Shown: positions 1-64,000, numbered from the stretch's first letter. The stretch: 64,000 bases of DNA from an uncultured Verrucomicrobiae bacterium (GCA_943788245.1 CALSPN010000012.1:28552-92551); one strand, 5' to 3'. The notes: generated by a model from the sequence alone, not told the origin. Made by a program: numbers and translations.

Positions 1-2
1 CA

Positions 3-1026
3 TTGTTTGGTGATCAATCACTACTGCAGCAGACCGTTGAGCGTGTGCTGCCTCTTGCACCCATTGAAAACATTCTAATCATCACCAATCATGCACAAGC
101 CGCAGCGGTCAGGAAGCAACTACCCTGTTTACCCAGGCAGAATGTGATCGCTGAACCTTGTGGCAGGGACACATGTGCCGCGATTGTCCTGGGAGCTGCC
201 ATTGTCGAGCAAAGGAATCCTTGCGGAGTCATGGCAGTTTTACCTGCAGACCATCTTATTCAGGATCAAAAAAAAATTCCAGCGTGTCTTAATTGATTGC
301 TTTCAACTTGCTGACAAAGAGGAACAGCTGGTGACGATTGGAATTCAGCCGACACAGCCCGCGACGAGCTATGGTTACATCAAGGAGGGTGGTAAACTCG
401 AGGCGGCGCAAAGAGCAATCAAGGGGAAAACAAAATTCAATAAGGTGGATCGATTTGTGGAAAAACCCAATGCGGCGAAAGCGCGGCGGTTTCTCAAATC
501 TGGTCAATACCGTTGGAATGCGGGGATGTTTGTTTGGTCTGTTCAAACACTGATGCATGCCTTTCAAACGCACCTGCCCGAGATGGTCGAAGCGTTTGAA
601 AGTTGGAAACAGGTTGCTGGGAGTGCAAAGAAACTGGCAGCTCAACTCGAGGAAGACTACCCTAATGTCACACGCATTTCCATCGACTATGCCTTGATGG
701 AAAAAGCTTCCAACACGGTGGTTGCTAGCGGGGTTTTCGATTGGGATGATCTCGGTTCATGGACTGCACTTGAACGGCATTTGAAGTCAGACGGCGAGGG
801 GAACTGTTCCAAGGCCTCACTCGTGCAAGTGGATTCAAGCAACAACATCATCTTTGATGCACGTAAAGGAAGGAAGCAACAGGCCATAGCCCTTGTGGGT
901 ATGGAGGATTGCATTGTCGTTCAAACAGATGATGCCTGCATGGTTGCATCGAAATCACACGGCCAACAAATCAAAGCCCTGGTTCAAAAACTTGCGGCTG
1001 ATCCCGTATTCAGGCATTTGACCTGA
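3..1026 (+). pseudogene. manC: Mannose-1-phosphate guanylyltransferase (GDP-mannose pyrophosphorylase); N-terminus cut by window edge; one frame break
   Basis: ORF 3..296 (frame 3) and the ORF ending at 1026 (frame 1) join colinearly into one nucleotidyltransferase. Motifs: EPCGRDTCAAIVLGA, VLPADHLI, GIQPTQPATSYGYIKEG, RWNAGMFVW, DWDDLGSW. The frame changes inside the A9 run 268-276; A8 would read ...HLIQDQKKFQRVLIDCF... without interruption. Confidence 0.8.
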
Positions 1027-1046
1027 TCGAGCCTTGTCGAAGGAGT

Positions 1047-10014: not shown

Positions 10015-13000
10015 ATGTTCCCTAGAGTTACTAACTCCCTTTATAATTCGAAAATTTGAGCACGATGCCTGTGGTGTAGGCTTCGTTGCTAACACCAATG
10101 GAAAGAAAGAGCGTCGTATTCTTTGACTACGCTCTTGAAGCTCTATGTAACCTTGCACATCGAGGTGCGCTAGACGCCGACGCTAAAACTGGTGACGGTG
10201 CGGGTGTAATGATTCAGATTCCGCAGCCCATTTTTTCAGGCCGAGGCTGCAGTGGTCGCTGGCTTGGACTCTGTCACCGAGGCAGTCGCCGTTGGTTTTG
10301 TTTTCCTGCCATCAGACAGTGATCAGCAGGTTTCACAGGCAGTTGAGATACTGCAGAGCGCGACCGAGGAATTCGGTATGAAAGTCTTTGGTTGGCGGGA
10401 TGTGCCCGGTCAATCCGAAGTGTCTTGGGGACAAAGCCCGTTCTACGATGCCATTCATGAAACAGATCCTTGTGGGTAGAGGAGATGGATGGGACGACAA
10501 TAATTTTGAACGTCATTTGTTCCTGGCTCGTAAAGTCGCTGGGCAACGGGCTAGAGAAAAAGGAATTGAGGATTTTTACATTACCTCATTCTCCTCACAG
10601 ACCGTCGTCTACAAAGGTTTATTCAATGCCCCGCAATTAGGGCAGTATTACCAAGATTTGCAAAGTCCACTGTTTGAGACTTCACTGGCTGTTTTCCATC
10701 AGCGTTACAGCACAAACACTTTTCCTACCTGGCGCTTGGCTCATCCCTACAGAACGTTAGCTCACAACGGTGAAATCAACACTTTGCTAGGCAACAAAAA
10801 CTGGACCCGAGCGCGTGAGCAAGAAATCACTTCACCCATTTGGGGGGATAACATTGAGCATTTGAGACAGATCATTCAGCCCGAAAGTTCTGATTCAGCA
10901 GCATTGGACAATGCACTCGAGATCCTCCGCTTAAGTGGGCGTAACATATTGCACAGTGTTTTGATGCTTGCCCCCGAAGCATGGGAGAAAATGGATGACC
11001 TTGATCCCGAAATGAGAGCGTTCTATCGCTACCATGCCTGTTTGAACGAACCATGGGATGGTCCAGCGGCAGTCGTCTTCACCGATGGTCGCTATGTCGG
11101 TGCAACGCTTGATCGCAATGGCCTGCGTCCAGCGCGTTATAAACTGTATAAAGATGGACTCATTGTCTTTGGTAGCGAGGCTGGCATGGTTGAATTAGAC
11201 GATGCAGACATCCAGAACAAAGGACGCTTGGGACCCGGTAAAATCATGGCAATTGACACTCTGGAAGGTCGATTGATGGGGAATGACGAGGTGAAGCGGT
11301 CTGTGGCTTCTCAGCAACCATATGGTCAATGGTGCGATGAAAACATGGTTTATTTGCGTGACCATGCTAAGCCTATCCAGCCAGTTGAAAAAACCCATCA
11401 ATCTGTTGGATTTAACCTTGCAGCAGATCGCCTTTGGTTGGGATTCAGAAGAATTGAAGCTGATCTTCAAACCAATGATCACCACGGGGGGCCGAGGCCA
11501 TTGGCTCAATGGGAGACGATACGCCCTTGGCGATCTTGAGTAAGAAACCTCGATTACTTTACTCTTATTTCAAGCAATTGTTTGCCCAGGTAACAAATCC
11601 TGCCATCGATAGCATTCGGGAAAAGGTAGTGATGTCGCTCTCGACCTGCATGGGGCACCGTCGCTCATGGCTGGAGGAGTCCCCCAAGCATGCCAGTCTC
11701 TTGCGCATAGATACTCCTTTTCTACTGGAATACGAATTGGCGGCTCTGGCCAACATGGACCATCCGGATGTGAACGCACACACCATCGGTTGTCATTTTC
11801 CTGCTTCCGGCAATACACAAGCCTTAGTTGATAGCCTGCGTAGCGTGTGTCACCAAGCATCCGAAGTCGTGGAAAATGGCTGTTCTGTAATCATTCTCAG
11901 TGACCGCGGAACGAATGAAGAAAAAGTACCCATTCCCATGCTACTTGCTGTTGGGGCAGTGCATCATCATTTGATCAGGGAGGGCAAACGACTCAAAGCC
12001 TCCATAGTCTGTGAGACCGGAGAAGCTCGTGATGTCCATCATTTTGCTTGTTTAGTCGGATTTGGTGCCTCTGCTGTCAATCCTTACGTGGCCATAGATT
12101 TAATTCGTGAATGGGCTGAAGAAGGTGAATTGGAAGGTGTAGATATTGATCAAGCCATCGCCAATTACCGTACATCCATAGAAAACGGGATGCTCAAAAT
12201 CATGGCTAAAATGGGGATATCAACCATGAGCAGTTATCGTGGTGCCCAAGTCTTTGAAGCGGTTGGAATTTCCGATGAAGTGATAGATGAATGCTTCTAT
12301 GGAACCACCTCTCAGATTGGTGGAATTACCTTTGAGCATATTGCATCGGATGCAATTCGCCGTCATCAACAAGGCTTCGGAGACCCTGAATCGGCCACAC
12401 TCGACGAGGGGGGGCATTATAAAGTCCTTCCTGGTGAGCGCGGGGAATTCCATGCTTTCAACAAGAAAGTGGTGCAGACCATGCACAAATTCCTTCGAAG
12501 CGGTGAGCGCGATGCATTTTTGACTTATTTGGAAACGGCTGAGAAACGTGATCCAGTCAACCTGCGAGATCTCTTCCAGTTAAAGCCTGATATCACGCCC
12601 ATTTCGCTGGAACAGGTAGAACCCATCGATTCCATTCGAATGAGGTTCACAACTGCTGCAATGAGCATGGGAGCACTTTCGCCTGAAGCCCACGAATGCT
12701 TGGCCATTGCCATGAATCGTATTGGAGGTAAGTCTAATTCGGGAGAGGGGGGCGAAGATGCCGAGCGATTTAATTTACGAGAAAACGGCGACAACGCATC
12801 TTCAGCCATCAAACAGGTTGCTTCAGGTCGATTTGGGGTAACACCCGAATACCTTGCAAGCGCTCAAGAGATCGAAATCAAAGTTTCGCAGGGAGCAAAA
12901 CCCGGTGAAGGAGGGCAGTTACCTGGGCATAAAGTAACGCCGTTGATTGCAACCTTGCGGCACAGTACACCCCGGAGTTCCTTTGATTTCTCCGCCTCCT

Positions 13001-14537
13001 CATCATGATATCTACAGTATCGAAGATTTAGCCCAGTTGATATATGACCTGAAGCAGGTAAATCCACGAGCAAAGGTGTGTGTGAAACTTGTAGCTTGTG
13101 CGGGGCGTTGGCACTATCGCGGCGGGAGTAGCAAAGGCCTTTGCCGATGTGATTCTGATCAGTGGCAATGATGGCGGTACGGGTGCCTCACCTCAGAGCT
13201 CCATCAAAAATGCTGGAGTTCCCTTTGAGCTGGGGCTTGCGGAAGCGCAGCAAACATTGATGCTCAATGATCTTCGTTCAAGGGTTATCTTGAGGACGGA
13301 TGGAGGATTAAAGACCGGATCAGACATTGTCATGGGCGCGTTGCTTGGTGCCGAGGAGTTCAATTTCGGTACTGCAGCTTTAATTGCAGCTGGATGTGCC
13401 ATGTTCAGAGTGTGTCACCTGAATACTTGTCCTGTTGGAGTTGCGACGCAAAGAGACGATCTACGCCTTAAATTCCGCGGTAAACCAGAAAATGTGGTGG
13501 CCTTCTTTGACCAGGTAGCACAAGAGGTCCGCGAAATCATGGCTTCTCTGGGAATTCGTAAATTCAATGATCTGGTAGGTCGAACAGATTTTCTCGAAGT
13601 CCGCCCTGTAGATCAATTTGATGAGCGTATCCAGTCCAAGGCAGGATCTCTGAACCTTGAAAAGCTGCTGTGGCAAGCCGACGAATCTGGTTCCATGCCG
13701 CGCATTCACACGCGTGAACGCAACGAGCGGTTTGGAGATAGTCCGTTGGATGACCGTATTGTAAATGAACGCAAAGCATGCCCTCAAAGGTTTGGGCAGC
13801 ATGAAGTTGAAGTATAAAATCAACAATGTTTGTCGCAACATAGGAACACGTGTTTCAGGCATTATTGGATATACCTACGGAGACACAGGTCTTCCGGCAG
13901 GCTCGATTGATCTAACGCTCACAGGCAGTGCCGGACAGGGCTTTGGCACCTTCCTTGCCAAAGGCTTGATTCTAAGACTTCTGGGAGAAGCCAATGATTA
14001 TGTGGGCAAGGGGATGAATGGTGGAGACATCATCGTACGCCCGCAAGATGGAGTTCTCTTTGATTCCTCGCAGAATGTGATTCTTGGCAATACTTGTCTT
14101 TATGGTGCCACTGGTGGGCGTTTGTTTGCTGCAGGTACCGCTGGTGAACGTTTTTGTGTGCGTAACTCCGGCGCTGTTGCCGTCGTTGAGGGTGTAGGCG
14201 ATCACGGGTGTGAGTATATGACTGGAGGCAAAGCTGTTATTCTCGGTGATACAGGACGTAATTTTGCGGCTGGTATGAGCGGTGGTGTTGCCTATGTCCA
14301 TGACATAGAAAACCGGATTTCCAAAGAATCTGAACAGCTTCCATGGTGGATATTGAACGGCTCGAAAGTGCGGAAGAGATACACATGCTGAAATCCCTTG
14401 TTCAGGAGCATTTCGATCATACTGGATCATCCAAGGGTGCCGGTTTATTGCAGAACTGGGCAGAGGAAGTGTCTCGGTTCTGGAAAATCATACCTCATCC
14501 GCCAGAGGCGAAGCCCCGCCTCCAAGCCTGTGCATGA
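10015..14537 (+). pseudogene. gltB: Glutamate synthase (GOGAT) large subunit, reading frame broken at least 10 times
   Basis: ATG 10015 (MFPRVTNSLYNSK) plus ORF pieces 10086..10322, 10252..10479, 10388..11539, 11322..11543, 11509..13008, 12947..13171, 13098..13817, 13765..14391 and 14343..14537 concatenate colinearly into GltB. Amidotransferase domain: FEHDACGVGFVA, HRGALDADAKTGDGAG, FHQRYSTNTFPTW, LAHNGEINT. FMN domain: [57 protein letters not shown]. The C-terminal GXGXG domain is also present. No gltD follows. Confidence 0.9.
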
Positions 14538-14610
14538 ATTAAATCAGGAAAAAGCGATTCCAGCGCCTACAGGTAGTTTCTAAGGATTCGATCTCCAAAT
14601 GATATGAACA

Positions 14611-14639
14611 AAAAAGCGGATCAATGATCCGCTTTTTTA
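14611..14639 (+). terminator. Intrinsic terminator after gltB
   Basis: Stem GCGGATC (14616-14622) / GATCCGC (14626-14632) with a 3-nt loop, followed by T6 (14633-14638) and preceded by an A-tract. Confidence 0.75.
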
Positions 14640-14834
14640 TTTGTTCGAATGGAAAAAATTATCTCTAAAATGAATATCTTCTAAATGCTTCAGTCTAAGG
14701 TGTTAGATGGTGATGATTTTGGGTGTAACTTATTGGGGGTTTTACCATATGATCACTCGCTATCGGTGTTCAGGTGTGTTCTTGAAATGATTTTGGTTAG
14801 ATCTGGAACAATCTAGTGACTTCAAAACACGCCT

Positions 14835-14860
14835 CAGGGCCATCCGTCAGGGTGGCCCTG
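14835..14860 (-). terminator. Candidate stem-loop terminator downstream of the kinase-like gene
   Basis: 8-bp GC-rich stem CAGGGCCA / TGGCCCTG with a 10-nt loop, about 100 nt downstream of the minus-strand gene 14959..15840. On the minus strand it is followed by ..GTGTTTTG, a weak U-tract. Confidence 0.3.
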
Positions 14861-14958
14861 ATTCATTTGTTAATCGATACTTCGAAGAGCTGCTTTCAAA
14901 TGCTGCCTTGCTTGCCAAATGCCTTTGAATGAGTCTGACTTTGCTTTCATCCTTCGGC

Positions 14959-45727: not shown

Positions 45728-45737
45728 CTCCATCCAC

Positions 45738-49599: not shown

Positions 49600-49656
49600 A
49601 ATAAAATTATCAGGGTTTCAAGTAGCTGAGTTTCTGAATGTTTTCTGATGAAGGGA

Positions 49657-50118
<462 letters not shown>

Positions 50119-50288
50119 CTATTGTTTTTGCTGGGTGATCACAAAGATACAAGGCTGACGTGATCAAGAATCAACAGTTATTAAGATTTTATACACTGTT
50201 CAAATAACAAACGGATTCGCTGTCTTTATTTAGTCTGATAGGGAATAGGGATGAAACATTCAGATTCCAAGGTTGAACTCAAACGGAC

Positions 50289-51566
50289 ATGTCCTTAAGG
50301 TTCGCGCCATTCCATATGAAGAATTTTTGTGCTCATAGATTGCTCCATTGGTGGTTTCGGACGGGTGTTGCAATGTTTGTAATGTGTGGACATTTTTCTC
50401 CCTCAAATGCACAAGTGTCTCCACGGCAGATTGAGATCGGGGTGATTCCGGGTGGGCTGAGATACAATGTGACGGAATTTGAAGCTGCCGTTGGAGAATT
50501 CATTGAGCTCACATTGGACAACAATGGTTTAATCCCTCACAACTGGTTGCTTGTTCAACCAGGGAAACTGCAAGATGTGATCAATGCTGCCGTCGCTTTG
50601 GGAGGCATCGGATTGAGTAAAGATTTTATCCCTCAAACACCAGACATCCTGCAACGCATAGCATTGGTTCAACCCGGCAAAAGCATTTCGATTCAATTCA
50701 AAGTTCCCGAAAAAACTGGAGATTACCCATATGTTTGCACCTTTCCTGGGCACTCGAATCTCATGCGAGGTGTGATGAAAGTGGTGGGTAAGTCTGAGAA
50801 GGTATCCGCTCCCTTGACTGAAACAAGTTCAAGACGACTTGCCTTGGACGCGTTAGCCAGATCAAAAGTTCAGCCATTCCCAGAGGGAACACGGGAAAAA
50901 CCCTACATCATCCGCACCTTCATGCCTGAACCTGGCCTTAACCCTGAAGTGCTCGCCAATCATGACCGCGGATATGTCGCTGCCAATTACAATCCCGGCC
51001 AGGGCAAAGACGTTCCTGGAATTGTCCTGACAGACCAGGGATTGCCTGCCGCCATCGGGGTTCACTTTGGTGAGCCTTTATCCATATGCTGGGACACGGT
51101 TGAATGTCGATTGATGTATGCATGGAATGGAGGTTTTCTGGATATGAGCCATTATTGGGGAAAGGGAGCCGGTGGAAGTCGGAAAGGATTTGATTACGTT
51201 TCTCGTTTGATCGGGAAAATTCAATTCAAGACTCAAGGAACACATCCCCTGAATGCCAATTATCGTGGGGATACAATCCCTCCTGTACCTCGGTATCGAG
51301 GGTATAAGCTGTTCAATGGGACACCAGAATTCATCTATACATTCGGACATTACACCGTATATGAACGTGTCACTCCATCCGGGAATAAGGCGGTGCAATT
51401 CGATTACTCCATTAGGGACATGCAGAACGACTCGCTGATAAGATTCGGCTTGGATCCAGCGATACGTCCAAGCGTGGAATCATCCATCGGACATTGGGAG
51501 GGCAACGAATTACTCCTCACCGCAGAGGAAGCCAGAAAATTTCAATTGGTCCTGCGTTACGATTGA
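50289..51566 (+). CDS. Azurin-like cupredoxin domain protein with a C-terminal domain of unknown function
   Basis: Intact 425-aa ORF with a signal-like N-terminus. Type-1 copper ligand pattern ...IPHNW...GDYPYVCTFPGHSNLMRGVMKV (H, C, H, M as in azurin CTFPGHxxxM). The roughly 250-aa C-terminal part has no motif I recognise. The start is possibly ATG 50316. Confidence 0.7.
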   Translation: MSLRFAPFHMKNFCAHRLLHWWFRTGVAMFVMCGHFSPSNAQVSPRQIEIGVIPGGLRYNVTEFEAAVGEFIELTLDNNGLIPHNWLLVQPGKLQDVINAAVALGGIGLSKDFIPQTPDILQRIALVQPGKSISIQFKVPEKTGDYPYVCTFPGHSNLMRGVMKVVGKSEKVSAPLTETSSRRLALDALARSKVQPFPEGTREKPYIIRTFMPEPGLNPEVLANHDRGYVAANYNPGQGKDVPGIVLTDQGLPAAIGVHFGEPLSICWDTVECRLMYAWNGGFLDMSHYWGKGAGGSRKGFDYVSRLIGKIQFKTQGTHPLNANYRGDTIPPVPRYRGYKLFNGTPEFIYTFGHYTVYERVTPSGNKAVQFDYSIRDMQNDSLIRFGLDPAIRPSVESSIGHWEGNELLLTAEEARKFQLVLRYD

Positions 51567-51599
51567 ACATGAGTTGCAAAATCTTGGGAAAAAGGCTTC

Positions 51600-53114
51600 A
51601 TGAAAATTCAAAAAGTTCTCAACATTTTTAGTCAGGCTTTAGCAGGTTTCGCCCTTGTGCTGCCTTATGTTGGTCAATCCGTTGAAATGCCACCCGAGTA
51701 TTATGAGGTGCAGGAAATCCCTTTGCCTGTCGGAGTGGCTCCTGAGATTGGCGGATTGAAATTCAACAGCAAAGGCGAACTCATCGTATTGACACGACGG
51801 TCAGGGATCCTGATTGCCAAACCTCATCAGGATCCCAATCAATTTCAATGGCGGACATTTACAGATCATAGTTTGCATAACCCCATGGGGATTCTCGTGG
51901 AATCGGATCATCAATTTCTGATTCCCCAGATGGCGGAGTTGACACGGATTGTCGACACTGATCGGGACGGCACAGCGGACTTGTTTGAAGCGGTCAGTAC
52001 GGAGTGGGGGGTCAGCGGGAACTATCACGAGACCAATGCCGGACCGATTCCTGATGGCGAAGGTAATTGGTTCGTTGCTATTGGGACAGCGTCTCACAAT
52101 GGCCCCACCTTTGATTACGTGCGAGGCGAATTCTCCAGAACGGGGCGTCGAGGGCGAAATTATTCCGCAGTAAAAGATAAAGGTTGGGTGGTGAAAGTGA
52201 CTTCTGATGGCAGCATCATTCCCTGGGCGAGTGGTTTTCGAGCGAACAATGGAATCGGGATGAGTCCTTCAGGGGATCTTTGGGTCACCGATAATCAAGG
52301 GGATTGGCGTGGGACATCTCCCATCTATCATGTTGAAAAAGGTCGTTTTTACGGACATCCATCCAGCTTGGTTTGGGATGCATCTTTTTTCCCAAAGAAT
52401 GGGGATCCATTGGAATTTGGGGTGGATCGATTAAATCAGTTAAGAACACCTGCGGCCATTCAACTACCCCATGGATTGGTATGTAACTCTCCTTCCGAAC
52501 CGGTGTTTGACGCAACCAACGGTAAGTTTGGTCCCTTCAAAGGCCAAATGATGGTGGGAGACATTGCTGGTCAACGTATCATTCGTGTCATGCCAGAGAA
52601 GGTAAGAGGCGTTTATCAAGGTGCATGTGCTTTTCTGATCGAAAATTCTGGATTACGTGGTGGTAATAACCGGTTGACCTTCAGTCCCGAGGGAAATGCT
52701 CTTTATGTGGGGCAAACCTACCGTGGATGGGGGGCTCCTGCTGAAGGGTTACAGCGCATTGTCTGGACCGGTGTCACACCTCTTGAGGTTCGACAAATGA
52801 GTTTAACGCCAGGTGGGTTTGATCTTACATTTACTAAACCAATCGATGCGAATGCAGCCAATGATCCCGATCGATATCAGATCCAAAGTTATCGCTACAG
52901 CTACGGACACAAATACGGAAGTCCTCAATTAGACAGGAAAGTTCATTTTTCAAAACGAGTGAATGTCTCTGAAGACAAGTTTACGGTTTCTTTGAAACTG
53001 GATCAGGTTGAAGCAGGAAAGGTATATCAAATAGATCTGGTCAACTTGTTTTCATCCGATGGATTACCCATCATCAATCCCATGGTTTGTTACACTGTGA
53101 ATCAATTGCGCTGA
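51600..53114 (+). CDS. Secreted beta-propeller protein (glucose/sorbosone-dehydrogenase-like / PVC membrane-bound dehydrogenase N-terminal type)
   Basis: Intact 504-aa ORF with signal ...LAGFALVLPYVGQSVE. Motifs: NPMGILVESD, TDRDGTADLFE, FRANNGIGMSPSGDLWVTDNQGDW, FYGHPSS, NRLTFSPEGNALYVGQTYRGWG. It lies 33 nt after the cupredoxin gene. Confidence 0.65.
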   Translation: MKIQKVLNIFSQALAGFALVLPYVGQSVEMPPEYYEVQEIPLPVGVAPEIGGLKFNSKGELIVLTRRSGILIAKPHQDPNQFQWRTFTDHSLHNPMGILVESDHQFLIPQMAELTRIVDTDRDGTADLFEAVSTEWGVSGNYHETNAGPIPDGEGNWFVAIGTASHNGPTFDYVRGEFSRTGRRGRNYSAVKDKGWVVKVTSDGSIIPWASGFRANNGIGMSPSGDLWVTDNQGDWRGTSPIYHVEKGRFYGHPSSLVWDASFFPKNGDPLEFGVDRLNQLRTPAAIQLPHGLVCNSPSEPVFDATNGKFGPFKGQMMVGDIAGQRIIRVMPEKVRGVYQGACAFLIENSGLRGGNNRLTFSPEGNALYVGQTYRGWGAPAEGLQRIVWTGVTPLEVRQMSLTPGGFDLTFTKPIDANAANDPDRYQIQSYRYSYGHKYGSPQLDRKVHFSKRVNVSEDKFTVSLKLDQVEAGKVYQIDLVNLFSSDGLPIINPMVCYTVNQLR

Positions 53115-53144
53115 GCTCATTTAATAGATCATTAGAAATTTTTC

Positions 53145-54581
53145 ATGAACGAAACCACATATCAAGAAGCTCCGAAAGACTGGAAAGGGATCGCAAAACA
53201 ACTGGGCCCCGGTCTGATCATTTCAGCAAACATCGTCGGTTCAGGAGAACTGATTGTCACAACCAAAGTTGGGGCAGATGTTGGCTTCATCCTTTTATGG
53301 TTCATCATTCTCGGCTGCATTGTGAAGGTGTTTTTACAGGTTGAACTGGGCAGGTATGCCTTGACCCACGGAAAAACGACCCTTCAAGCCATGGATGCGG
53401 TGCCGGGTCCCAGATTTTCATTCATATGGCGATGGCTGAATCTTAGGGCGGAAGGGTCATGGCTGGTCTGGTGTTGGATCATCATGTTCATTGCGACCTT
53501 CTTTCAGGTGTCAGGGATGGTGGGGGGCATAGCGGGTGTCTTTCAAACGGGAGCCCCTGCGATATCCGTGCCCCCGGCATGGTATGTTGATGCTCAGAAC
53601 GGACTCTCTGCCGAGGCAATAGGTGCCCAGTGGCAAAATTTATTGAATACCGGTTGGGCATTGCTGATTACTGGCTCTTGTGCAGCTTTATTAATTGTTG
53701 GTCGATACCGTTTCATTGAACGCTTCTCCACCACGATGGTGGCCGCTTTCACCCTTTTTACCATCTTTGCTGTCTTCTCACTTTACACCACAGAATATGG
53801 GATCACTGCGGGGCAGATTGCCGAGGGATTGAAGTTTGAACTGCCAGATAAGTTTACGACTGCCTTTGCGGCCTTCGGCGTCATTGGGGTCGGGGCAGCT
53901 GAACTGATTTATTACCCCTACTGGTGTTTGGAAAAAGGTTATGCGCGCTATGTCGGCCCTAAAGAAGATACCCCTGAATGGGAATCGCGAGCTCAGGGGT
54001 GGATGAATGTGTTGAGATGGGATGCATGGATTTCCATGGTCATTTACACAGGTGCAACTGTGGCCTTCTATTTGCTTGGGGCAGCCATACTCCATGGAAA
54101 GGGCTTGGAAGTGACGAACGATGATCTGATCCCCACGCTTTCGAATTTGTATCGAGAGTCTTTCGGTATACCCGGGCTGTGGATTTTTCTCGTGGGAGCT
54201 TTGGCCGTTCTATACTCCACGGTCTTTATTTCAACGGCCTCCAATGCGCGTCTCTCCGCGGATCTATGGCTTCTTTTCACAAAGCACGCAAAGGGCAAGG
54301 GAGTGGATAGAGCCACCTTGACAAAGCGTGCTTGCGTGTTGATTCCCGCGCTTTACTTCATTTTCTACGTGTCCGTTGGTAAACCGTTGACTCTGGTGTT
54401 CATCGGCGCTCTAGCTCAGGCATTGATCCTACCCTTTCTGTGTTTTGCAGCAATCTACTTCCATTATTATCAAACGCATGCGGCACTTTTACCCGGCAAG
54501 TTCTGGGTGGTCTTGTTGTGGGTTTCGAGTTTTCTGATGGCTGCAGTGGGTTTTTACCAGCTCTTTGAAAAGCTTAAGTAA
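53145..54581 (+). CDS. Nramp-fold transporter, divergent (canonical DPGN and MPH metal-site motifs not present)
   Basis: Intact 478-aa ORF, about 11 TM. The N-terminal GPGLIISANIVGSGELIVTTKVGADVGFILLWFIILGCIVKVFLQVELGRYAL is colinear with the Nramp TM1-TM2 pattern GPG....y.DPGN......Ga..gy.LLW. GSGE replaces DPGN, and GVGAAELIYYPYW sits where A..MPHN is expected. Confidence 0.7.
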   Translation: MNETTYQEAPKDWKGIAKQLGPGLIISANIVGSGELIVTTKVGADVGFILLWFIILGCIVKVFLQVELGRYALTHGKTTLQAMDAVPGPRFSFIWRWLNLRAEGSWLVWCWIIMFIATFFQVSGMVGGIAGVFQTGAPAISVPPAWYVDAQNGLSAEAIGAQWQNLLNTGWALLITGSCAALLIVGRYRFIERFSTTMVAAFTLFTIFAVFSLYTTEYGITAGQIAEGLKFELPDKFTTAFAAFGVIGVGAAELIYYPYWCLEKGYARYVGPKEDTPEWESRAQGWMNVLRWDAWISMVIYTGATVAFYLLGAAILHGKGLEVTNDDLIPTLSNLYRESFGIPGLWIFLVGALAVLYSTVFISTASNARLSADLWLLFTKHAKGKGVDRATLTKRACVLIPALYFIFYVSVGKPLTLVFIGALAQALILPFLCFAAIYFHYYQTHAALLPGKFWVVLLWVSSFLMAAVGFYQLFEKLK

Positions 54582-54830
54582 ATATTTCAGGGTTATCATT
54601 TGAGTCTGGATTTCCGGCGGTCAAACTGTGGAAATTGTCCTGTTGACACCTTGATGATACTTGTTACGAAATCACTCTTCCTGAAAGATCAAAGCAACTT
54701 CAGGCTTAGCGGTAATCCCATCGTTACCAAGCCTCAGCATGCATCCTGGAACAATCAATCGATGGTAAATTAAATAACTTATGCCAGACAGCTTGCCCTT
54801 CTCGACGGGCTTTGGCAGAGTGGCCATCAG

Positions 54831-56003
54831 ATGCGGTTATTAATCAGGGAATGGACAGAAGCGATTGAGACGTTGGTGTTGGAGGTCATCTCCGGCCATC
54901 GTCGTGATCGTAAGGCAACGGTCATTCGTGGTGGCTTGTTCTGTTTGTCCATGGTCTTTAAGGTTATTATCAAGCTCCGTCACGCACTCTATGCTGTGCG
55001 CATCCTCAGAGACTCCACTTTGGGAGTGCAGGTTATTGCCATTGGGAATCTGACCGTAGGTGGCACTGGGAAAACCCCAGTGGTTGAAAAATTTGCCAGA
55101 GAACTGCAGGATGCTGGAAGGAAGGTAGCCATTCTCTCCCGGGGCTATCGCTCGAAACCACGTCCATTTCATGAACGATTGCTCAACAAGATACTCCTGA
55201 GACAAGATATCACGCCGCCCAAAGTTGTCTCCAATGGCGAAGCTTTGCTTTTAGATTCGGAAACATCTGGGGATGAACCTTACATGCTTGCTGCGAATCT
55301 TCGTGATGTAGTAGTCCTGGTGGACAAGGATCGTGTGAAAAGCGGGCGTTATGCGATTGAAAAGTTTGGTTGTGATACCCTCTTGCTCGACGACGGATTT
55401 CAATATTGGAAACTCAAGGGGAGACGACACGATGTGGTTTTGATTGACTATCAGAATCCGTTTGGAAATGGGAACTTACTTCCCAGAGGTACTCTGCGCG
55501 AACCAACTTCTCATCTGGCGCGTGCTCAAACTATTTTCATCACGAAAATAGATGGACCAACGGATCAACTCAGGCAACAAATCCAAGAATTAAACCCCAA
55601 GGCTGGGGTGATTGAATGTGTACATAATCCACTTTTTTTTGAAGATCTTTTTACGGGTGAACAATTGCCTTTGGAATTTGTGAGGCATCGACGCCTGGCA
55701 ACTATCAGTGGTATTGCCCAACCTGAAAGTTTCGAACAGAGCCTGATTCGCCTGGGGAACCAAGTGGTTTACCAGCGTCGTTTTGCTGATCATCATCGAT
55801 ACAGTCAGCAAGAGGTGCTGGATGTGATTAATCGTGGTGTGCGCCGCAAGGCTGAAATGCTGATAACTACCCAAAAAGATGCTGTGCGATTTCCAAAGCT
55901 GGACCGTCGAGATCTTCCAATTTACTTCATGCGAGTGGAAATCAAAATCATGAAGGGTGCCAATGATTTCCGGGATTGCGTCAAGAAAATTTGTTTTCAT
56001 TAA
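54831..56003 (+). CDS. lpxK: Tetraacyldisaccharide 4'-kinase
   Basis: Intact 390-aa ORF with IGNLTVGGTGKTPVVEKFARELQDAGRKVAILSRGYRS (P-loop), GDEPYML and LLDDGFQ, as in LpxK. Confidence 0.85.
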   Translation: MRLLIREWTEAIETLVLEVISGHRRDRKATVIRGGLFCLSMVFKVIIKLRHALYAVRILRDSTLGVQVIAIGNLTVGGTGKTPVVEKFARELQDAGRKVAILSRGYRSKPRPFHERLLNKILLRQDITPPKVVSNGEALLLDSETSGDEPYMLAANLRDVVVLVDKDRVKSGRYAIEKFGCDTLLLDDGFQYWKLKGRRHDVVLIDYQNPFGNGNLLPRGTLREPTSHLARAQTIFITKIDGPTDQLRQQIQELNPKAGVIECVHNPLFFEDLFTGEQLPLEFVRHRRLATISGIAQPESFEQSLIRLGNQVVYQRRFADHHRYSQQEVLDVINRGVRRKAEMLITTQKDAVRFPKLDRRDLPIYFMRVEIKIMKGANDFRDCVKKICFH

Positions 56004-56006
56004 CTC

Positions 56007-56925
56007 ATGGATCGATTGCTGAACCATTTGCTATATCTAGCTGGCCGAACCTTTGTTTGGGTAGTTCAGCTTTTCCCGTTGAGATTTGTAGCGTGGACCG
56101 GGCGTATGGCTGGGCTGCTGGCCTTTTTACTTGGATTGGCGTCATCGAAGAGTCGCTGTCGGTCAGTTGGATTGCTTTCTCAAGCATACGGGCAGAAAGG
56201 GGGATTCTGTCAAAATGGGCAGAGAACATTTTCAACGTTTGGGAGAGAATTATCTTTCTGCAGTAAAAACATCGGGCATGAGGTCTGAAGCATTGGAAAA
56301 GCATATCGAATTCAGAGGCATCGATCTTTTTGAAAAGCCCGTGACACCGGATTCCCCTGGTGAATGGAAAAATGGTTGGATCATTGCCATTGGTCATTTT
56401 GGGAATTTTGAACTTTATGCGCGTAGTCTGAGTAGTCTCAACGGACGCGTCGGGGCAGCAACCTACCGTGGATTGAATCAGCCAGGATTGAATCGGCTTC
56501 TGCATGAGCTTCGAGCCAGTTCAGGTGTTCGTTTTTTTGATCGCCGTAAAGAAGTAAAGGCTTTGAGGAAACTCATGACCGATGGTTCTGTTGTGCTTGG
56601 TCTGCTTGCTGACCAGTCTGCTGGAAGTGGGATGCTTTTGGATTTCCTTGGCGATAAATGCCTCTGCTCGACGGCACCTGCTATTTTTTCACAACGTTAT
56701 CATTGTCGCCTGGCCACAGGGATATGTTACCGCACTGGCCCTGCAAAATGGGTCGTTGAGTTTGAAAAGGAGATACCAACGTTTTCGAACGGTTCCAAAC
56801 GATCGGTTGAAGAGGTGACTGAAGATGTGAATACTGCTTTCGAAAAGGCCATTTACAAGGATCCGCTAAATTGGTTCTGGGTGCATGACAGATGGAAGCG
56901 TTTCAAGAAAAAACGCAAGCGTTGA
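56007..56925 (+). pseudogene. Lipid A biosynthesis (LpxL/HtrB-type) lysophospholipid acyltransferase, one frame break
   Basis: MDRLLNHLLYLAGRTFVWVVQLFPLRFVAWTGRMAGLLAFLLGL, then after GG 56138-56139 the +1 frame continues RHRRVAVGQLDCF...GHFGNFELYAR (HX4E-type acyltransferase motif)...NWFWVHDRWK. It starts 4 nt after the lpxK stop. Confidence 0.7.
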
Positions 56926-57059
56926 CTCAGATAGCTCTTAACCAGCCTTGAGACTCTGGGGCTTGCAGCACCAAAGGCGACCTTCAAGATAGGTCAAGTT
57001 GATGAAATCGATTTATTGAGGGGTATTCATTTCCAGGTTCAAAATGGAGGTGCAATTCA

Positions 57060-59474
57060 TCAATTCTGAGGAAGCGGCCAGTTCAAGTGCTTGTGGAGAA
57101 ATTCGAAAGTTCCTTTGCCATTGATGGTATGAGGTCCAGGAAACCACTCAATTTCACAACGATCTCCCATTCCTAATTTTGCCTGGTACAAATGCCTGAC
57201 TTTGGCAAATTCATAAGCGACACGTTCATCCGGGGCTACTCCATCGAAGTGGCCGCGTTCAACCATGAATGGACGTGGTGCGATAAGGGCTGCCATCTCC
57301 GAATAATTAAAAGTACTGCCCCAAATTAAATTCAAAAATCTCATATTCGCCTGACCATACATAACTGTAAGGGGTCACAGTGGATGCATTTTTCCATACC
57401 CAGTCATTGAAATCAGCAGAGCAGATGGATAGGCAATAATCTTTCACGAGAGCTGGAATCCTCATTGCTGATTTCCCTCCGTAGGACAAACCGTAAAATG
57501 CCATACGCTCGGCATCAACATTCGGTAATGTTTTCAACCAATTGAGGATTTGCTGATGCTGAGGAACAATGATCGAAAAAAGAGTTTTTTTCAATGGGTA
57601 TGCTTTGCGCTGCAAAGTCCTGAATCTATCTTGAAAAATGTAAAGATTTTGCGGTGAAAATGTAATGAAACCCCGAGATGCGAGTTTGGATGCGAAATCA
57701 TGGTAAGCCTGATGATCGCCCTGCACGATATCTCGGGGCCGCCCTTCCAATCCATGTTGACAAACCACCACAGGACGCTTTTCTCCCTTCTTGAGGTCGT
57801 TGGGCAAGCACAGGATACCGTAGGCAATCACATCTTCGAATACATCCAGTACGACCTCGTAGCCTGTCCAGTTCTCACCTTCGTATGTTTGACGTGTGCG
57901 TGGGTTCATTGGGAGCAACGGATCATTGAAGTGGCCAATGATTTCATCTCTGTAAAGATCCCGGTAAGGCTCAATCGTTTCCTCGAAGGAGCTGATAGAG
58001 GAAGTGTTCAGGGATTTCATGAATTCCTTCCTGATATATGGACTCCTCACGAGCGTCTGTTGTGTATGTCTGTCCCATGCCGCGATGAGTCTTTGCTGAC
58101 GGGCTTCAAACACAGTCGTATCTGGAATGGAAGGGGTAATGGGCTTGCTGGGACCAGGTTTTAACCCGAGTCTGAGATTATCAAGAAAAACTTCTAAAGC
58201 GGGTTCGCTGCCAAAAGGCAATCCGCTTCCGAGAATGAGCCGGATGGGGATTTCTTCAACATAAGAGGCGAGGAGCTGGCGAGCCCTCTGTACTTCAGTG
58301 TAGACTTCCCCCGGGTCTGGACCGGCAAGTTTTGCAGGAGCTCCGCCTTTTCCAGGAAGGTCTGCGACTGGCCCAGGGGCTGCCTCAATGACCAGTGAAC
58401 GTGGCACGATGAGTGTGGCAAGTTCTGCATCTCCAAATTGTTCAAGCAGTCCAAAAATGTTTCTCGAAATGGGCTGTTCCCAGATGTTTTCCCGTGGACC
58501 AAAATAACCGCTCACTCCCACCGTGTTTATCCTGGGATCAAGGGCTCCTGCATAGAGAGCAATCATTCCTCCTTCACCGTATCCCATGACGCCGATTCTG
58601 CGACGTTCAGGGCCTTGGTGAGACTCAATCCAATCGACTAGACTCAACACGGTCTGCACTTCGTAGCCGGCAATATGGCGGCCCATTTCGTAAGCCGAGC
58701 GATACAGGTATTCTCGTTGCGATAATTCCGAACCCCATCCACCATATTCGGATTGTCTGCGTGTCATTTTTCGAGAAATCAAATCAGGTATGATGACTCG
58801 ACATCCAGATTCTGCCAAGCGTCTGGCAAACTGGCTTTCGGGAGCAATGCCTGGTGCCAGTCCAGCAAGTTGCTCTGGTGTTTGATCTGCGTCGGGAAGA
58901 GCTATGACATGCGCTGCCGTGTAAGAAGGAATCGTGTGGTGCACGCTCCTTGTAAGCACGCCGTGAACTTCGGTGTGCAACTCTGTATTTCAGTTTGCCG
59001 GAAAGTCAACAGGTTGGGAACCAGCATGAGGCCCTCAGCGACAACGTCTCCTACGACAGGCCACTTTATTTTATAGGCATCAAAAGCCCCTGTTTTCATG
59101 TAAACAGGGGATTTTTCATTTATTTCCAAATCATATTTAGGATGCGTGAAGGCAACACGCTGATCTTTCAACCCAAGCAGGCCTGCGAGTTTTGCACGAT
59201 TAACTTGAATGGACTTCTGATAAGCTTCGGCCGAGGAAAAATCGCGTGACCAGTGTTGTTTCCTTGCCTTGACCGATTCTTTCAGTTTTTTCAGTAGAAA
59301 ACGGTCTACTCCGCTTACCAGCGTCGATGCAATGTCCCCTTCGATCGTCAGTTCACGGGTCTCAGGAATAGTCGAAGGTTCGTGGTTTTGAGCAGAGGTC
59401 AATGGAATACCACTGACAAGCGTTCCAGTAATCAGGAAGGCCGTGACGTGCATGAAATGGAATGGGCTGATCAT
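57060..59474 (-). pseudogene. Large secreted alpha/beta-hydrolase (dienelactone hydrolase / acetyl-xylan-esterase-like, two hydrolase-like halves), 2-3 frame breaks
   Basis: ORFs 58902..59474 (signal MISPFHFMHVTAFLITGTLVSGIPLTSA), 57307..58980 and 57060..57362. GVMGYGEGGMIALY and AFYGLSYGGKSAM are nucleophile-elbow-like G-x-S/E-x-G motifs. C-terminal ...ERGHFDGVAP...FPGPHTING. Confidence 0.6.
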
Positions 59475-59803
59475 GGGCTTTTTTTCTTCCCCTCTTATCC
59501 CATGTCAGAAGGAGGGACGCAACCTTTTAGGGAATTCCCTGTAATTCAGATCGGGGTTTTTCTCTTCCTTCTTTTATTTGGCCCATGTGATCTGTCCTGC
59601 ACTAAAAGCATATGCAACCACTCAGCGTCATGCACATTTAAGGTAAGGGCTGTTAAAAAATTAAACGGAATATGGATTACTTCCTGTGTTTCAATAATGT
59701 CGCGAGGGTGTTTTTATATGGTGCCGTAATCATTGAATCATACTACGGAAAATTGCCTTTGAGATTGACATTTAATTTCTTCATTGAGGATAGTTTTCCA
59801 TCC

Positions 59804-62395
59804 ATGAATTTTCTCGGTCTCTTTCCATTCATATCGTCGACGCCATCCTTGGCTCTGCTCGCCATTTTAATAAGTGGTTCCATCAGTCAGAGCATGGCTG
59901 AACCATTTGATCCTGCCATGCATCAAAAACATGCCCGTACTTATTCTCCCGAGGAAAGTATGGGCATGATTGATCTGGCGCCCGGTTATCGATTGGAATT
60001 GGTTGCTGCAGAACCCTTGATTGAGGAACCTGCGACGATGGCCTGGGATGGTGATGGTAAACTGTATGTCGCGGAGCTGAATACCTACATGCAGGAAATC
60101 GATGGGAAGAATCAACATGACCCTGTTTGTCGCGTCGTTTTATTGGAGGATACCGACAACGATGGCCGTATGGACAAAAGGTCGGTCTTTGTCGATGGGC
60201 TCAAATTGCCGCGTATGATTCAACCTTTGGATGATCGAGTGATCATTCGTGAAACAGACACTTTTGATCTTCATGCTTACAGGGATACCAATGGAGATGG
60301 CGTGGCTGACGAGAAGCAACGGGTTTATGAAGGCGGTCCACGAGGTGGTAATCTGGAGCATCAACCAAGTGGTCTGGAGTGGAACGTGGACAACTGGATG
60401 TATGTCACCTACACCGACCGGCGCTATCGCTGGGCAGGTGATCATATCGAATCAGAAAAAATTCCCGGCGGATCTGGTCAATGGGGTGTGACTCATGATG
60501 ATGTTGGAAGGAATTTTTACTCCACTGCAGGTGGTGAAAATCCTGCCATGCATTTCCAGATTCCCATGGTTTATGGAAAACTTACCTTGTCGGGTGAACA
60601 AGCTCCTGGTTTTCGCGAGGTGTTTCCGCTGGTGCAGATTCCTGATGTGCAGGGTGGTCGCGGACGTTTTCGAAAGGATACTCTGACCTTGAATCGTTTC
60701 ACTGGCTGCGCTGGTCAACATATTTATCGCGGGGATCGTCTTCCTTCGGATTTCTATGGAGATTATATCATTCCAGAACCCGTGGGTCGTCTGGTGCGTC
60801 GAGCTAAGGTGGTTTATGAAAATGGCAAGAGAATCGTTAAAAATGCCACCCCTGGAACCGAGTTCCTGCGTTCAAGAGATGCAAACTTTCGCCCAGTCCA
60901 TGCATCGACTGGACCCGATGGCTGTCTTTACATCCTGGACATGTATCGAGGGATCATTCAGGAAGGAAATTGGGTGAGACCGGGATCCTATCTGCGAGAT
61001 GTGGTTGAGAATTACGGTTTGGATAAGAATATTGGAAGAGGTAGAATTTATCGCCTCGTTCATGAATCGACGGAGCGAGGTCCGAGCCCCAGACTGATCC
61101 ATGCACCCGCCCCGGAGCTGGTATCCCATTTATCCCATCCTAACGGTTGGTGGCGAGATACGGCACAGAAACTGTTGGTTGTTCGCGGTGATCGATCTAT
61201 TTCAAATGATCTTGGTTCCGTTGCAAGGAATGCACCCAATCCTCTTGGCCGTCTTCATGCATTGTGGACGCTTGATGGACTGGGGGCTTCTTGACACAAC
61301 ATTGCTCCTTGATAAGCTGGAGGATGACGATGGGCGAGTGCGGGCGGCCGCCGTCCGAATCCTCGAACCACAATTGACGTCTGGAGATGAAAGTGTTGCC
61401 CGGGCAGTGTTTGCGCTTGTTGATGATCCAGATATGCAAGTGACCACTCAGTTGCTCTTGTCCGCGGCGCAAACGGGTGCTCCCGGCAGTGAGGCTATGC
61501 TAGAACATTTGACGGCGCGCCATGAGGGGAATCCAAATATCAGGAGCATTTTGAATCATGTTCAATCTCAGCAGGCGATCGCCAGGAAGCGTCGGCTCGA
61601 AAACGAATTCCTCGCCAAGGGTCGTAATAATTTTGAAATAGCCTGTATGCCATGTCACGGCATGGACGGAAAAGGTACACCGGCACCGGGAACCAACATG
61701 ACTCTTGGAGCTCCGATTGCCGGTTCACCTCGAGTGACTGGAAGGATGGACATTCCCATCAAAATCATGCTCAAGGGAATGACAGGCGAATTAGATGGAC
61801 GAACATTTCCTGGACCGATGTTGCCTCTGGAATCATTTGATGATGAATGGATTGCTTCAACCTTGACTTATATCCGAAGTCATTGGGGGAACAAAGCACC
61901 CATGGTGACAGCTGAAGATGTGGCAGCTGTTCGTTCCCAGATAAAAGATCGTGAAGTCATGTGGGATTCTTCTGAAATCCTTTCCATGGTTCCAGTGCCT
62001 TCCAAACAAATGCGGCAATGGCGCTTTACCTCCAGCCATAAAACAAAAGAGATTAAATCAGCCATCGACGGAAACCCAAACTCCCGCTGGGATACTGGAG
62101 CGGTTCAAGTGCCTGGTATGTGGCTTGCGTTTGATATGGGGCAGGAACATGAGTTGACCTCAGTGGTTCTGGACAGTCGTCGTTCAAAGCAGGATTATCC
62201 CCGTCAATACAGCGTAGAAATTTCTGACGATGGTGAACATTGGAGTAAAACCCATTGCAGAAGGCTATGGGCAGAGTCCGATACTGCAGATTGTCCTGCC
62301 TCCCACAAAGGCGCGCCATGTCCGGATAAGCCAGCATGGAAGTGCTTCCGGAAAATTTCTGGTCCATCCACGAACTGGAAGTTTATACGAAATGA
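59804..62395 (+). pseudogene. PVC-type heme-binding (CxxCH) membrane-bound-dehydrogenase domain protein with HEAT repeats and an F5/8 type C (discoidin) end; three frame breaks
   Basis: ATG 59804 gives signal MNFLGLFPFISSTPSLALLAILISGSISQSMA/EP. LVAAEPLIEEPATMAWDGDGKLYVAEL and DTDNDGRMD. HEAT-like RVRAAAVRILEP after G5 61282-61286. Cytochrome c motif ACMPCHGMDGKG. Discoidin-like AIDGNPNSRWDTG...YSVEISDDGEHWSK. The last 50 aa are recovered by +1 shifts at 62247-62250 and 62356-62358, ending ...WSIHELEVYTK* at 62395. Confidence 0.7.
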
Positions 62396-62527
62396 TCCAT
62401 GTTTGAAAGATACTCTGAGAGCTATCAAATGGCTCCTGAAGCTGCCACGCGCGGCGAGCAGGGTTTCTATAGTTCCATCTCATTAAAAAATGGGTTAGCG
62501 CGTATGGCACGTTTGGCATGCGGGAGG

Positions 62528-64000
62528 TTCATTTTCTTTCAGCCAATGATTTAATGAAAGATGCCGTCATCAGGATGGATATCATGAGCATGGGAACGGA
62601 GACGACTACCGAGATGGTCTGCAGTCCCACCAGCACTTGTGATTGCCCGCCGATGGACAGTATGGACAGTGGCAGGATTCCCAGCGTGATAGCCCATAGA
62701 ACCCGATGCCAGCGAGCCGGATCCTGGTTTTTACGGATGGACCGGGTGGCAGCAAGTGCCAGAGTGTAAGATGCCGAATCGTATGTGGTGGCGGCAAAAC
62801 TGATGCATAACAGAAAGAAAAAGAGGGAGAATCCATTGCCCCAGAGGTAGGGAAGTCATGACCTGTACCACCGCCGCATGCCGGTTTTCGTTGAATGTTT
62901 TTGATAATTTCGACGCCTTGTTGATGCTCGAGGATGGATGCGTATCCTCCGAAGATGATAAAGCAAAGCATGCAGCCAAGTGTGCCGTAGCCCCAGAACC
63001 CCCCCATATCAATTGTCCGAGGGTTCTACCTCCGGATATTTTAGAGATGAACATGCCCACGAACGGGCCGATGGCAATCCACCTTGCCCAATAAAAAACG
63101 GTCCAGCTTTCAGTGAACGCGCCGTTTTTACCAGGGTAATAAAATGCCGCTCATCGCAGGAAATTGTCTTATCATGAAGGTGATGCTTTCGAAGCCTTGC
63201 TTTGTGATCGCAAGGGTAGGCCCCCGAAAAAATAAACCACTCCAAGAATGGCGAACATGAGTACCCAGATTGCAATTGGAAAGCCGCTTGATCCCTCTGT
63301 CCAGTCGCGAAGGATACTGACAGGGGCAATCAGGGTGATAATCAGAACTATGGATCCGATTGTGAAACCCGAACGACGGCTCCAGCCCAAAAAAGGTCTT
63401 GAATGATTCGGTGATCAAAGGGGTTGTCAGACCCAGTCCAGTACTGGCTGAACCTATCAATCCAATCATGAACATCGCATTGAACCAGCCTTCCCGGCCA
63501 ACGGTAAACAGCTGCTTTGAGAATGGGCGCACACGCATTCGCGAGACTGGGTGAGGATTCTTTTCGAACGTAATAAGCATGACTGAAACATACTGCTGAC
63601 AGAGCATAGAAGGCCCCAGCCGATGAGCCCCCAGTGGAACATCCCCGTAACTCATGGCCCATTGGTGTGCTTCAGTGGATTTTGGTTCAATATCAAAAGG
63701 GGGGGTGAGATAATAATCAATCCACTCAATCGTTCCCCAATAGAGCAGGGCGGTTCCAATGCCGGTCGAAAAAAGGCATGCCAGCCCACGTCAATCCAGA
63801 ATATCGGGGTGGCTCGCCCTTGGGCCCCAGTTGGATGTTGCGATAAGGACTCAAGAGGCCAGTCCAATGAGGAACAGTATGGTGACAATACCGAATCCGA
63901 TGTAAATCCACCCTAATCGCTGTGTAAGGAACTGAAATGCAATCTCGATGCTCCTGTTACCTCTTTCAGGAAAAAGAAACAATAAAACCGACAAAAGTAA
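62528..64000 (-). pseudogene. BCCT-family (betaine/carnitine/choline) transporter, many frame breaks, 5' end at or beyond the window edge
   Basis: Fragments read across frames: WIYIGFGIVTILFLIGLA, PEFS-like ..GEPP.., WAGMPF/..IGTALLYWGTIEW, the BCCT signature region [36 protein letters not shown], and the C-terminal ...LQTISVVVSVPMLMISILMTASFIKSLAERK* (stop 62528-62530). Confidence 0.7.

Follow-up and report, generated by a model that had tools for sequence, protein, structure and literature searches.

The window analysed here, a 64-kb stretch of DNA from an uncultured Verrucomicrobiae bacterium, contains 41 genes, and its deposited sequence truly contains frame breaks, nearly all of them in one direction. 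Its population is one of marine Verrucomicrobiota with at least two co-occurring strains, named here strain A (L054/L016 type) and strain B (L046 type). The window was compared with 52 related loci, many of them 99.5–99.99% identical to it, from Illumina metagenome assemblies, JGI contigs, NCBI genomes and Logan assemblies; across 18.7–28.2 kb the strain-A comparator is one NCBI contig only (L054). The private status of each event was judged against the nearest comparators, backed by 3–16 others at every site. Private insertions were counted by clustered net offset; counting by exact alignment column gives only 59 (gap placement varies between comparators). AddA scans of genome and metagenome contig collections returned only relatives at 93–97%, which were used for polarity and not for substitution counts. 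Rfam and tRNA scans of the 64-kb window gave no match. The features of the window are as follows.

268–276, plus strand: A9 run in manC, a gene for surface-sugar precursor synthesis; A8 in all comparators, and one A shorter in 6 of 6 near-identical loci. By per-kb counts it is the sole private indel within the first 10 kb, which are otherwise error-free.
10054–17299: plain, homopolymer-enriched patch of 23 +1 insertions in sequence that is otherwise purely strain A; gltB (12), APH (6), a CxxCxxCC gene (2), an intergenic spacer (2) and the start of ThuA.
17180: the only private 1-nt deletion; GGGG in the window against GGTGG or GGCGG in 7 of 7 near-identical loci.
17300–26300: mosaic zone, where strains A and B are blended site by site; its 110 private insertions comprise 95 single and 15 multi-base ones. 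It runs from the end of ThuA through PSCyt/PSD, DUF1552, the class IV aminotransferase, hflC and hflK to the 3' end of a DUF7133 heme-binding gene.
26301–35224: stretch free of private indels; it contains addA, the 3' three quarters of addB and the bulk of the heme-binding gene.
35225–41054: plain patch of 25 insertions with 0–3 substitutions per kb; 5' 884 nt of addB (10), a PQQ propeller (2), a blaI-like gene (1), gntR (3), an ABC ATPase (7) and the first 1 kb of a beta-propeller gene (2).
41055–56122: 15 kb that likewise lack private indels; over 11.8 kb, the window and locus L015 differ by a single mismatch.
56123–58982: plain patch of 7 insertions; an acyltransferase (1) and a hydrolase (6, five of them within 58925–58982).
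61291–63857: plain patch of 22 insertions, denser toward the window end; 3' end of a discoidin/DUF7133 gene (3), a spacer (2) and a BCCT transporter (17).

In total, 188 insertions versus one deletion are private to the window, a +1 bias even stronger than that claimed in the original prediction from the sequence. At least one event is present in 22 of the 41 genes. The insertions add 206 bases, and their number far exceeds the 35–40 events first estimated; that count had overlooked the PSCyt/PSD gene (17839–20662), which by itself holds 72 events, and was exact for the ABC ATPase (7), hflK (3) and hflC (2). As proposed, most events are single-base (171 of 188), but the statement that no multi-nucleotide indel occurs was wrong: 16 insertions are of 2 nt (e.g. 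TG at 17581 and AA at 20756) and one, GGG at 17878, is of 3 nt, the longest private indel. In the whole window, 47 of the 171 single insertions lie in runs of at least 3. The runs listed as break points all exist where they had been placed, apart from an A8 run that is off by one (22399–22406). Among the 17 sites resolved by hand, 11 proved exact and six had to be shifted by 2–20 nt onto another base. For the latter, the true event is a C at 10229 instead of the T6 run at 10231–36 (gltB), AA at 16478–79 instead of AA at 16483–84 (ykgJ-like gene), 22414–17 instead of A8 at 22400–07 (aminotransferase), a G at 36022 instead of T6 at 36042–47 (addB), a C at 56123 instead of GG at 56138–39 (acyltransferase) and a T at 61291 instead of G5 at 61282–86 (PVC heme protein). 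Three sites had been taken for -1 changes. That at 17178–17181 in the ThuA-like gene is a true 1-nt loss, at 17180, but not the contraction of a run, the comparators having an interrupting T or C. The site at 20750 in the DUF1552 gene is actually a +2 (the AA at 20756), and that near 14338 in gltB corresponds to two +1 events, at 14314 and 14340.

Beyond alignment-placement shifts, the 188 events are absent from all comparators, except for an insertion (CC) at 25511 that is common to the window and L049. When the inserted bases are removed, each broken gene regains the length of its orthologue, and because deleting the insertions restores all genes, no nonsense mutations or other lesions are left in them. 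The window shows 610 differences from the nearest comparator, of which only 50 match no other comparator; 18 of these 50 fall where strain-B loci offer no aligned sequence.

The mosaic zone between 17.3 and 26.3 kb holds 110 of the 188 private events. At its 867 A/B-variable sites, the window has the A allele 414 times, the B allele 452 times and neither of them once. The sequence switches between the two strains 350 times, with a median tract of 2 variable sites (3 bp) and a mean span of 14.6 bp; independent draws at each site would give a similar number of switches, 432. This 9-kb stretch matches no real strain. Sequencing miscalls were considered for the excess of substitutions at 17–21 kb and were ruled out, the bases being strain-B alleles. 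Among the single insertions of the zone that could be resolved, 51 of 69 are tandem alleles of an adjacent SNP, versus 10.4% in simulations (P=1.6e-35); of the insertions elsewhere in the window, 1 of 67 is of this kind. Because the insertions are built from the alleles of the two strains, the mosaic and the insertions can be regarded as one process. Homopolymers are depleted in this class, as only 5 of the 95 single insertions are in runs of at least 3 (16.4 expected), and for 72 of the 95 no neighbouring base is identical. The homopolymer context described earlier thus does not apply within the zone, but it does outside, where 42 of 76 single insertions (55%) lie in such runs and 13 (17%) are expected (P<0.00025).

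Could the zone be a genuine A/B recombinant, with the insertions alone being erroneous? All but one of its variable sites match A or B, its flanks are clean A, as expected of a recombinant, and a longer pure-B tract of 394 bp is present at 18649–19042. However, tracts of bacterial homologous recombination typically measure hundreds to thousands of bases, and 350 switches in 9 kb, with tracts of two sites and a number near that for independent draws, are far from such a pattern. The insertions themselves, moreover, are made of the alleles of both strains. A genuine recombinant is, in our opinion, very unlikely.

The 78 events outside the mosaic zone are simple +1 insertions and form a plain class. 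An identical base adjoins 60 of the 76 single ones, and 21% adjoin none. Bins of 1 kb with 8–10 such insertions carry 0–2 substitutions. In the patch at 10054–17299, substitutions versus strain A number 0–4 per kb, and the strain-A allele is found at 336 of the 340 A/B-variable sites in 12448–17299. The possibility that the plain insertions are tandem alleles of another known strain was rejected, since only the one insertion in 67 mentioned above fits. It is conceivable that a few of the run extensions are real slippage variants within the population (phase variation) that were captured by the assembler, the change from A8 to A9 in manC being the best candidate; we consider this improbable.

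The distribution of the events bears on whether genes are truly being lost. Events are strongly clustered, with a dispersion index of 11.4 and 34 empty kb bins versus 3.4 by Poisson. Real gene decay would mean that the strain is shedding genes, for instance upon a change of lifestyle, through genuine frameshift mutations. That more than half of the genes are affected, some repeatedly (12 events in gltB and 72 in PSCyt/PSD), superficially resembles old pseudogenes. However, the kb-sized patches cut across gene borders and intergenic DNA is equally affected (7.0% of events versus 7.3% of bases). Lesions are only partial in addB, the heme-binding gene, the beta-propeller gene and DUF1552; in addB, all 10 events are in the 5' 884 nt (P=9e-7). 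The core genes gltB, addB, hflK and hflC are broken in the window, yet their copies are intact in 99.9%-identical assemblies. In addition, the deletion bias is missing, none of the indels exceeds 3 nt, private substitutions are almost nil (the 50 of 610 differences unmatched elsewhere), and genes freed of their insertions contain no nonsense mutations. Gene decay is extremely unlikely, and an artefact is indicated instead because the extra bases (~190) are carried by no other assembly of the same population, bar the one insertion shared with L049. The original prediction had also preferred an artefact over natural decay, and that preference is borne out by insertions that are missing from independent assemblies, patchy, almost without private substitutions and not accompanied by nonsense mutations.

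Slippage yields gains and losses alike, and loss of mismatch repair also raises transitions. That the breaks stem from a true mutator lineage dominated by slippage, in which short runs would grow after, for instance, a loss of mismatch repair, is hardly credible. In its favour are the 55% of single plain insertions that extend runs and the effect on the longest run of the window (manC, A8 to A9). Against it, no run has contracted (the one deletion falls outside runs), affected patches have 0–2 substitutions per kb although transitions should rise, the homopolymers of the 27–35 kb and 42–56 kb stretches are unaffected, and one fifth of the plain insertions adjoin no identical base. The loss of mismatch repair that had been offered as a fallback is thus unsupported by these one-way, patchy and substitution-poor events. 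No mismatch-repair gene is on the gene map of the window, which covers 64 kb only.

We conclude that the frame breaks are very probably neither mutations nor gene decay but artefacts of the consensus, which arose when a metagenome with mixed strains was assembled, probably from long reads. Two mechanisms may have operated. For the 110 events at 17.3–26.3 kb, reads from two strains would have been collapsed into a single consensus. From the pattern observed, we infer that the caller picked either allele almost randomly at each variable site. Where both alleles of a SNP were emitted in sequence, a between-strain substitution would become a +1 insertion, and adjacent multi-base differences between the strains would result in +2 or +3. 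The 78 plain events, in patches of 3–7 kb whose sequence otherwise equals strain A, may be read-level insertion errors that survived at low read support; the explanation for the one-way direction of this class is one that we only infer. A consensus error had been proposed in the original prediction, and this part stands; homopolymer miscalling, its suggested source, covers the minority class only, and flow chemistry is not indicated.

Sibling assemblies provide further information. L033 and L049, two 'contig_N' assemblies of the same ENA series, also carry split genes; L049 additionally switches between strains, being an A/B chimera too. The insertion shared at 25511 is in our view explained by a common strain pair and pipeline, although it might also be taken as independent support for that insertion. 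A cluster of 10 'insertions' in L033 (window 38.6–38.8 kb) was examined as the same error; it overlaps indel alleles of L001/L002 and was left uncounted, since it probably represents a genuine, divergent allele of the intergenic DNA. Logan contigs of runs ERR9769277 and ERR9769281 match the window without its insertions. According to their descriptions, the sibling runs ERR9769275, -76 and -80 are marine PacBio HiFi data. Judging from these sibling assemblies and runs, the source technology is most likely long-read, i.e. PacBio HiFi with a Flye-type assembler. For PacBio HiFi bloom metagenomes assembled with Flye, 'a higher number of frameshifts' was reported in the PacBio data (PMC10877868). 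In the nanoMDBG paper (PMC13087279), truncated proteins are treated as insertion-deletion errors, and the collapsing of strains is an acknowledged limitation of assemblers for long-read metagenomes. No published statement of an insertion-only bias of a Flye-type assembler was found.

The biological value of these breaks is low, as the window tells nothing of mutation or gene loss in the organism. In practice they matter moderately: about 0.3% of the bases in a public genome record are inserted, and 22 of the 41 genes of the window would be called pseudogenes or appear fragmented in protein databases. Several fragments of the broken genes are already in a protein collection. Tandem-allele +1 insertions at between-strain SNPs offer a simple and easily checked sign that a metagenome assembly contains consensus errors from collapsed strains.

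Several known systems can be compared with the window. The window resembles the pseudogene-rich genomes of recently host-restricted bacteria in having many adjacent genes that are each broken several times. Those genomes, however, show a deletional bias and mixed indel sizes, whereas the window has no deletion bias, no nonsense mutations and no excess of substitutions; its lesions cut across gene borders, and relatives that are 99.9% identical lack them. With slippage at contingency loci and in mismatch-repair-deficient mutators the window shares some runs of A, C, G or T extended by one, including manC from A8 to A9. It differs in that its events are one-way, patchy and without transitions, half of them being outside runs. 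The indel and frameshift errors of long-read (meta)genome assemblies, whose truncated proteins are measured with IDEEL-type tests and corrected with tools such as proovframe, are alike in splitting genes by 1 nt, in the homopolymer enrichment seen in the plain class and, probably, in their dependence on local read support. Here, by contrast, the events are nearly pure insertions (188 to 1), of which no such description was found, and more than half of them are strain SNPs written as tandem alleles instead of read noise. Finally, as in the collapsed-strain consensus, one contig stands for two co-occurring strains and the consensus flips site by site. Such a collapse is usually described as mixed SNP calls, and the window additionally gains frameshifts by emitting both alleles.

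The window comes from a marine population of Verrucomicrobiota whose public records carry the labels Pedosphaera sp., Limisphaerales or Verrucomicrobiota bacterium. Its GC content is 46–50%, and tRNA and Rfam scans of it gave no match. It was compared with 52 usable related loci, including species-level relatives (L001, L002, L026, L027, L029 and L030; 93–97% DNA identity) and independent assemblies of the same population (ENA Illumina scaffolds, single-run Logan assemblies, JGI contigs and NCBI genomes; 99.5–99.99% identical).

Comparator loci and the part of the window that they cover
L016–L025, same population: 1–18.7 kb
Strain-A contig L054 and eight strain-B contigs L046–L053: 10.5–27.7 kb
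L032–L039, same population: 28.2–48.5 kb
L006–L015, same population: 38.2–59.6 kb
L040–L045, same population: 49.7–64 kb

The genes broken in the window are intact across all comparators listed.

Lengths of the intact proteins in the comparators
gltB: 1518 aa
addB: 1174 aa
Beta-propeller gene: 1320–1341 aa
ABC ATPase: 320 aa
hflC: 321 aa
hflK: 303–326 aa
DUF1552: 474 aa
Discoidin/DUF7133 protein: 906 aa

The comparators show some variation of their own. The spacer at 38560–38780, around a 62-aa ORF (38476–38664) that is not called in L033, L035 and L036, is hypervariable, with several small-indel alleles in L001, L002 and L033. A 20-nt indel at 38040 is common to L033, L035 and L036. L034 lacks 12 nt (CAAGTATCCATC) at 36406 in the PQQ beta-propeller gene, an in-frame length polymorphism. 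Between nramp and lpxK (54667–54668), near-identical assemblies are polymorphic, one group having 11 bases more than the window and the other one base less. In the NCBI contig L008 (GCA_028033835.1), an inverted junction lies within the ABC ATPase gene (window 39129–40337) and an extra G in a G6 run (window 53528) splits the Nramp gene (337 and 148 aa); this contig is thus not free of assembly or amplification errors itself.

To call private events, the window was aligned to the nearest comparator for each stretch and agreement of the other comparators was required. This gave 188 insertions totalling 206 bases (171 of 1 nt, 16 of 2 nt and one of 3 nt) and a single deletion, at 17180. The +1 bias of the original prediction is therefore real and much stronger than claimed, and the runs that it listed are present where it placed them. 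Its total of 35–40 events was about five times too low, mainly because the PSCyt/PSD gene (72 events) had been left unresolved, and its statement that no multi-nucleotide indel exists was wrong. Eleven of its 17 hand-resolved sites were exact, the other six being displaced by 2–20 nt to another base, and two of the three sites with firm coordinates read as -1 are actually +2. Every broken gene regains the length of its orthologues once the insertions are removed and the one lost base is restored, which means that the genes carry no nonsense mutation and no further lesion. Several ORFs of the window are on public record, by exact sequence, from one contig of 92,972 bp deposited at NCBI and ENA; they include truncated ORFs of 770 aa (relatives 999–1053), 540 aa (relatives 906) and 409 aa (relatives 474), so the frame breaks are present in the deposited sequence. 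Truncated broken-gene products, such as fragments of 770, 540, 409 and 387 aa, form separate entries in a public protein collection.

The events are spread very unevenly along the window (dispersion index 11.4).

Private events along the window
1–10 kb: one event in total
10–17 kb: 1–5 per kb
17–21 kb: 15–33 per kb
21–22 kb: 0 per kb
22–27 kb: 1–7 per kb
27–35 kb: 0 per kb
35–42 kb: 1–10 per kb
42–56 kb: 0 per kb
56–59 kb: 1–5 per kb
59–61 kb: 0 per kb
61–64 kb: 1–13 per kb

These patches ignore genes. In addB, all 10 events are confined to the 5' 884 nt (P=9e-7). Damage is restricted to one end in each of five further genes (heme-binding, beta-propeller, DUF1552, hydrolase and discoidin), and the share of events in intergenic DNA (7.0%) is close to its share of bases (7.3%). 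The number and context of the events (72 in one gene, in random contexts) exclude programmed frameshifting.

Outside a mosaic zone at 17.3–26.3 kb, all 78 events form a plain class. Only one of 67 fits a known strain allele, and the background is nearly identical to strain A (0–2 substitutions per kb at 8–10 insertions per kb). Runs of 3 or more are extended in 55% of cases versus 17% expected (P<0.00025), and 79% adjoin an identical base. The homopolymer signature of the original prediction thus holds for this class, to which 15 of its 17 hand-resolved sites belong, hence the general impression; in the mosaic zone homopolymers are instead depleted (5% in runs of 3 or more versus 17% expected). 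The manC change from A8 to A9, a lone event within 10 clean kilobases, might reflect genuine phase variation, though the probability of this is low. A small cluster of 11 substitutions at 58900–59600, matching no comparator and adjoining five insertions at 58925–58982, may stem from an unsampled third strain.

The mosaic zone contains 110 insertions. Strain assignment was scored at sites that differ between strain A (L054) and strain B (L046). Upstream of ~17.3 kb the window is called pure A (336 of 340 variable sites), and after 26.3 kb it is mostly A again (58 of 69). Within the zone it carries the A allele at 414 sites, the B allele at 452 and neither at one. A genuine A/B recombinant is contradicted here, as the 350 switches approach the 432 expected under independent per-site draws and strain tracts have a median length of 2 variable sites (3 bp). 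At each site, in effect, a separate choice was made between the two strains. Among its resolvable single insertions, 51 of 69 set the two alleles of a neighbouring A/B SNP side by side, versus 10.4% for simulated random insertions (P=1.6e-35); at 25511, for example, strain A reads ATATCCTTAG, strain B ATATCTGTCG and the window ATATCCTGTCG. An identical adjoining base is missing for 76% of the insertions in the zone. It also holds 15 of the 17 insertions of 2–3 nt, which arise from multi-base strain differences. Strain merging and the insertions of this zone are mechanically linked. Window 15500–21000 is also a strain-variable island relative to L046–L053: in the strain-B contigs the APH-like and CxxCxxCC genes are separated by an additional Laminin_G_3 gene (652 aa), and the PSCyt/PSD gene (937 aa in strain B, 889 aa in strain A) has only ~71% DNA identity between strains in its 5' part, flanking genes differing by 4–8%.

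Beyond alignment-placement shifts, no event is common to the window and any comparator, except the 25511 insertion, also found in L049. In the run series most like the window, a Logan contig of ERR9769277 has 1 mismatch in 11.8 kb and none of the window's events, and one of ERR9769281 spans 15 events and has none in common. Real gene decay and a slippage mutator are both contradicted by the tests run here. The consensus-artefact interpretation is supported, since the insertions are private to the window, their patches ignore genes and the mosaic class is tied to strain merging; the frame breaks are not a real biological feature, and the original observation as a whole is partly confirmed.

Two deposited contigs of one ENA series with Flye-style names, ERZ10646082 contig_17426 (L033) and ERZ10645735 contig_14106 (L049), also contain split genes whose Illumina-assembled counterparts are intact. 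L049, a long-read-style contig matching window 17843–32107, is a B-to-A chimera (strain B to ~25.7 kb, strain A from ~26.1 kb), and the 25511 insertion that it has in common with the window is ascribed to one strain pair having been processed by one pipeline in both cases. In L049 the heme-binding gene falls into pieces of 910, 58 and 65 aa. In L033, addB and the ABC ATPase are each split by a +1 run extension particular to that contig (T4 to T5 at window 34673 and G4 to G5 at ~39820, respectively), and one A run is contracted (window 37595). Runs ERR9769275, -76 and -80 are described as marine PacBio HiFi metagenomes (PMC12552423, PMC10794208), and in a study of Flye-assembled PacBio Sequel II HiFi bloom metagenomes the gene caller was changed "due to a higher number of frameshifts" (PMC10877868). 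A SPAdes contig of the same population and ENA series has a coverage of 3.5, so low depth is plausible. Together, these points suggest that the window's contig is from a low-coverage long-read metagenome assembly. The plain patches span 3–7 kb and so are roughly read-sized; few reads would support the contig there, and across the mosaic zone the reads from the two strains would have been polished together. We infer that the insertion-only bias is part of this mechanism; a published description of such a bias was not found in the literature.

The value of this case is as a data-quality warning, and it gives a clear example of strain SNPs turned into frameshifting tandem alleles. To our knowledge there is no biological counterpart in which bases are added 5–10 times faster than substituted, never removed, and only in kb-sized blocks; such an insertion-only pattern in kb blocks is something that a consensus caller can produce.
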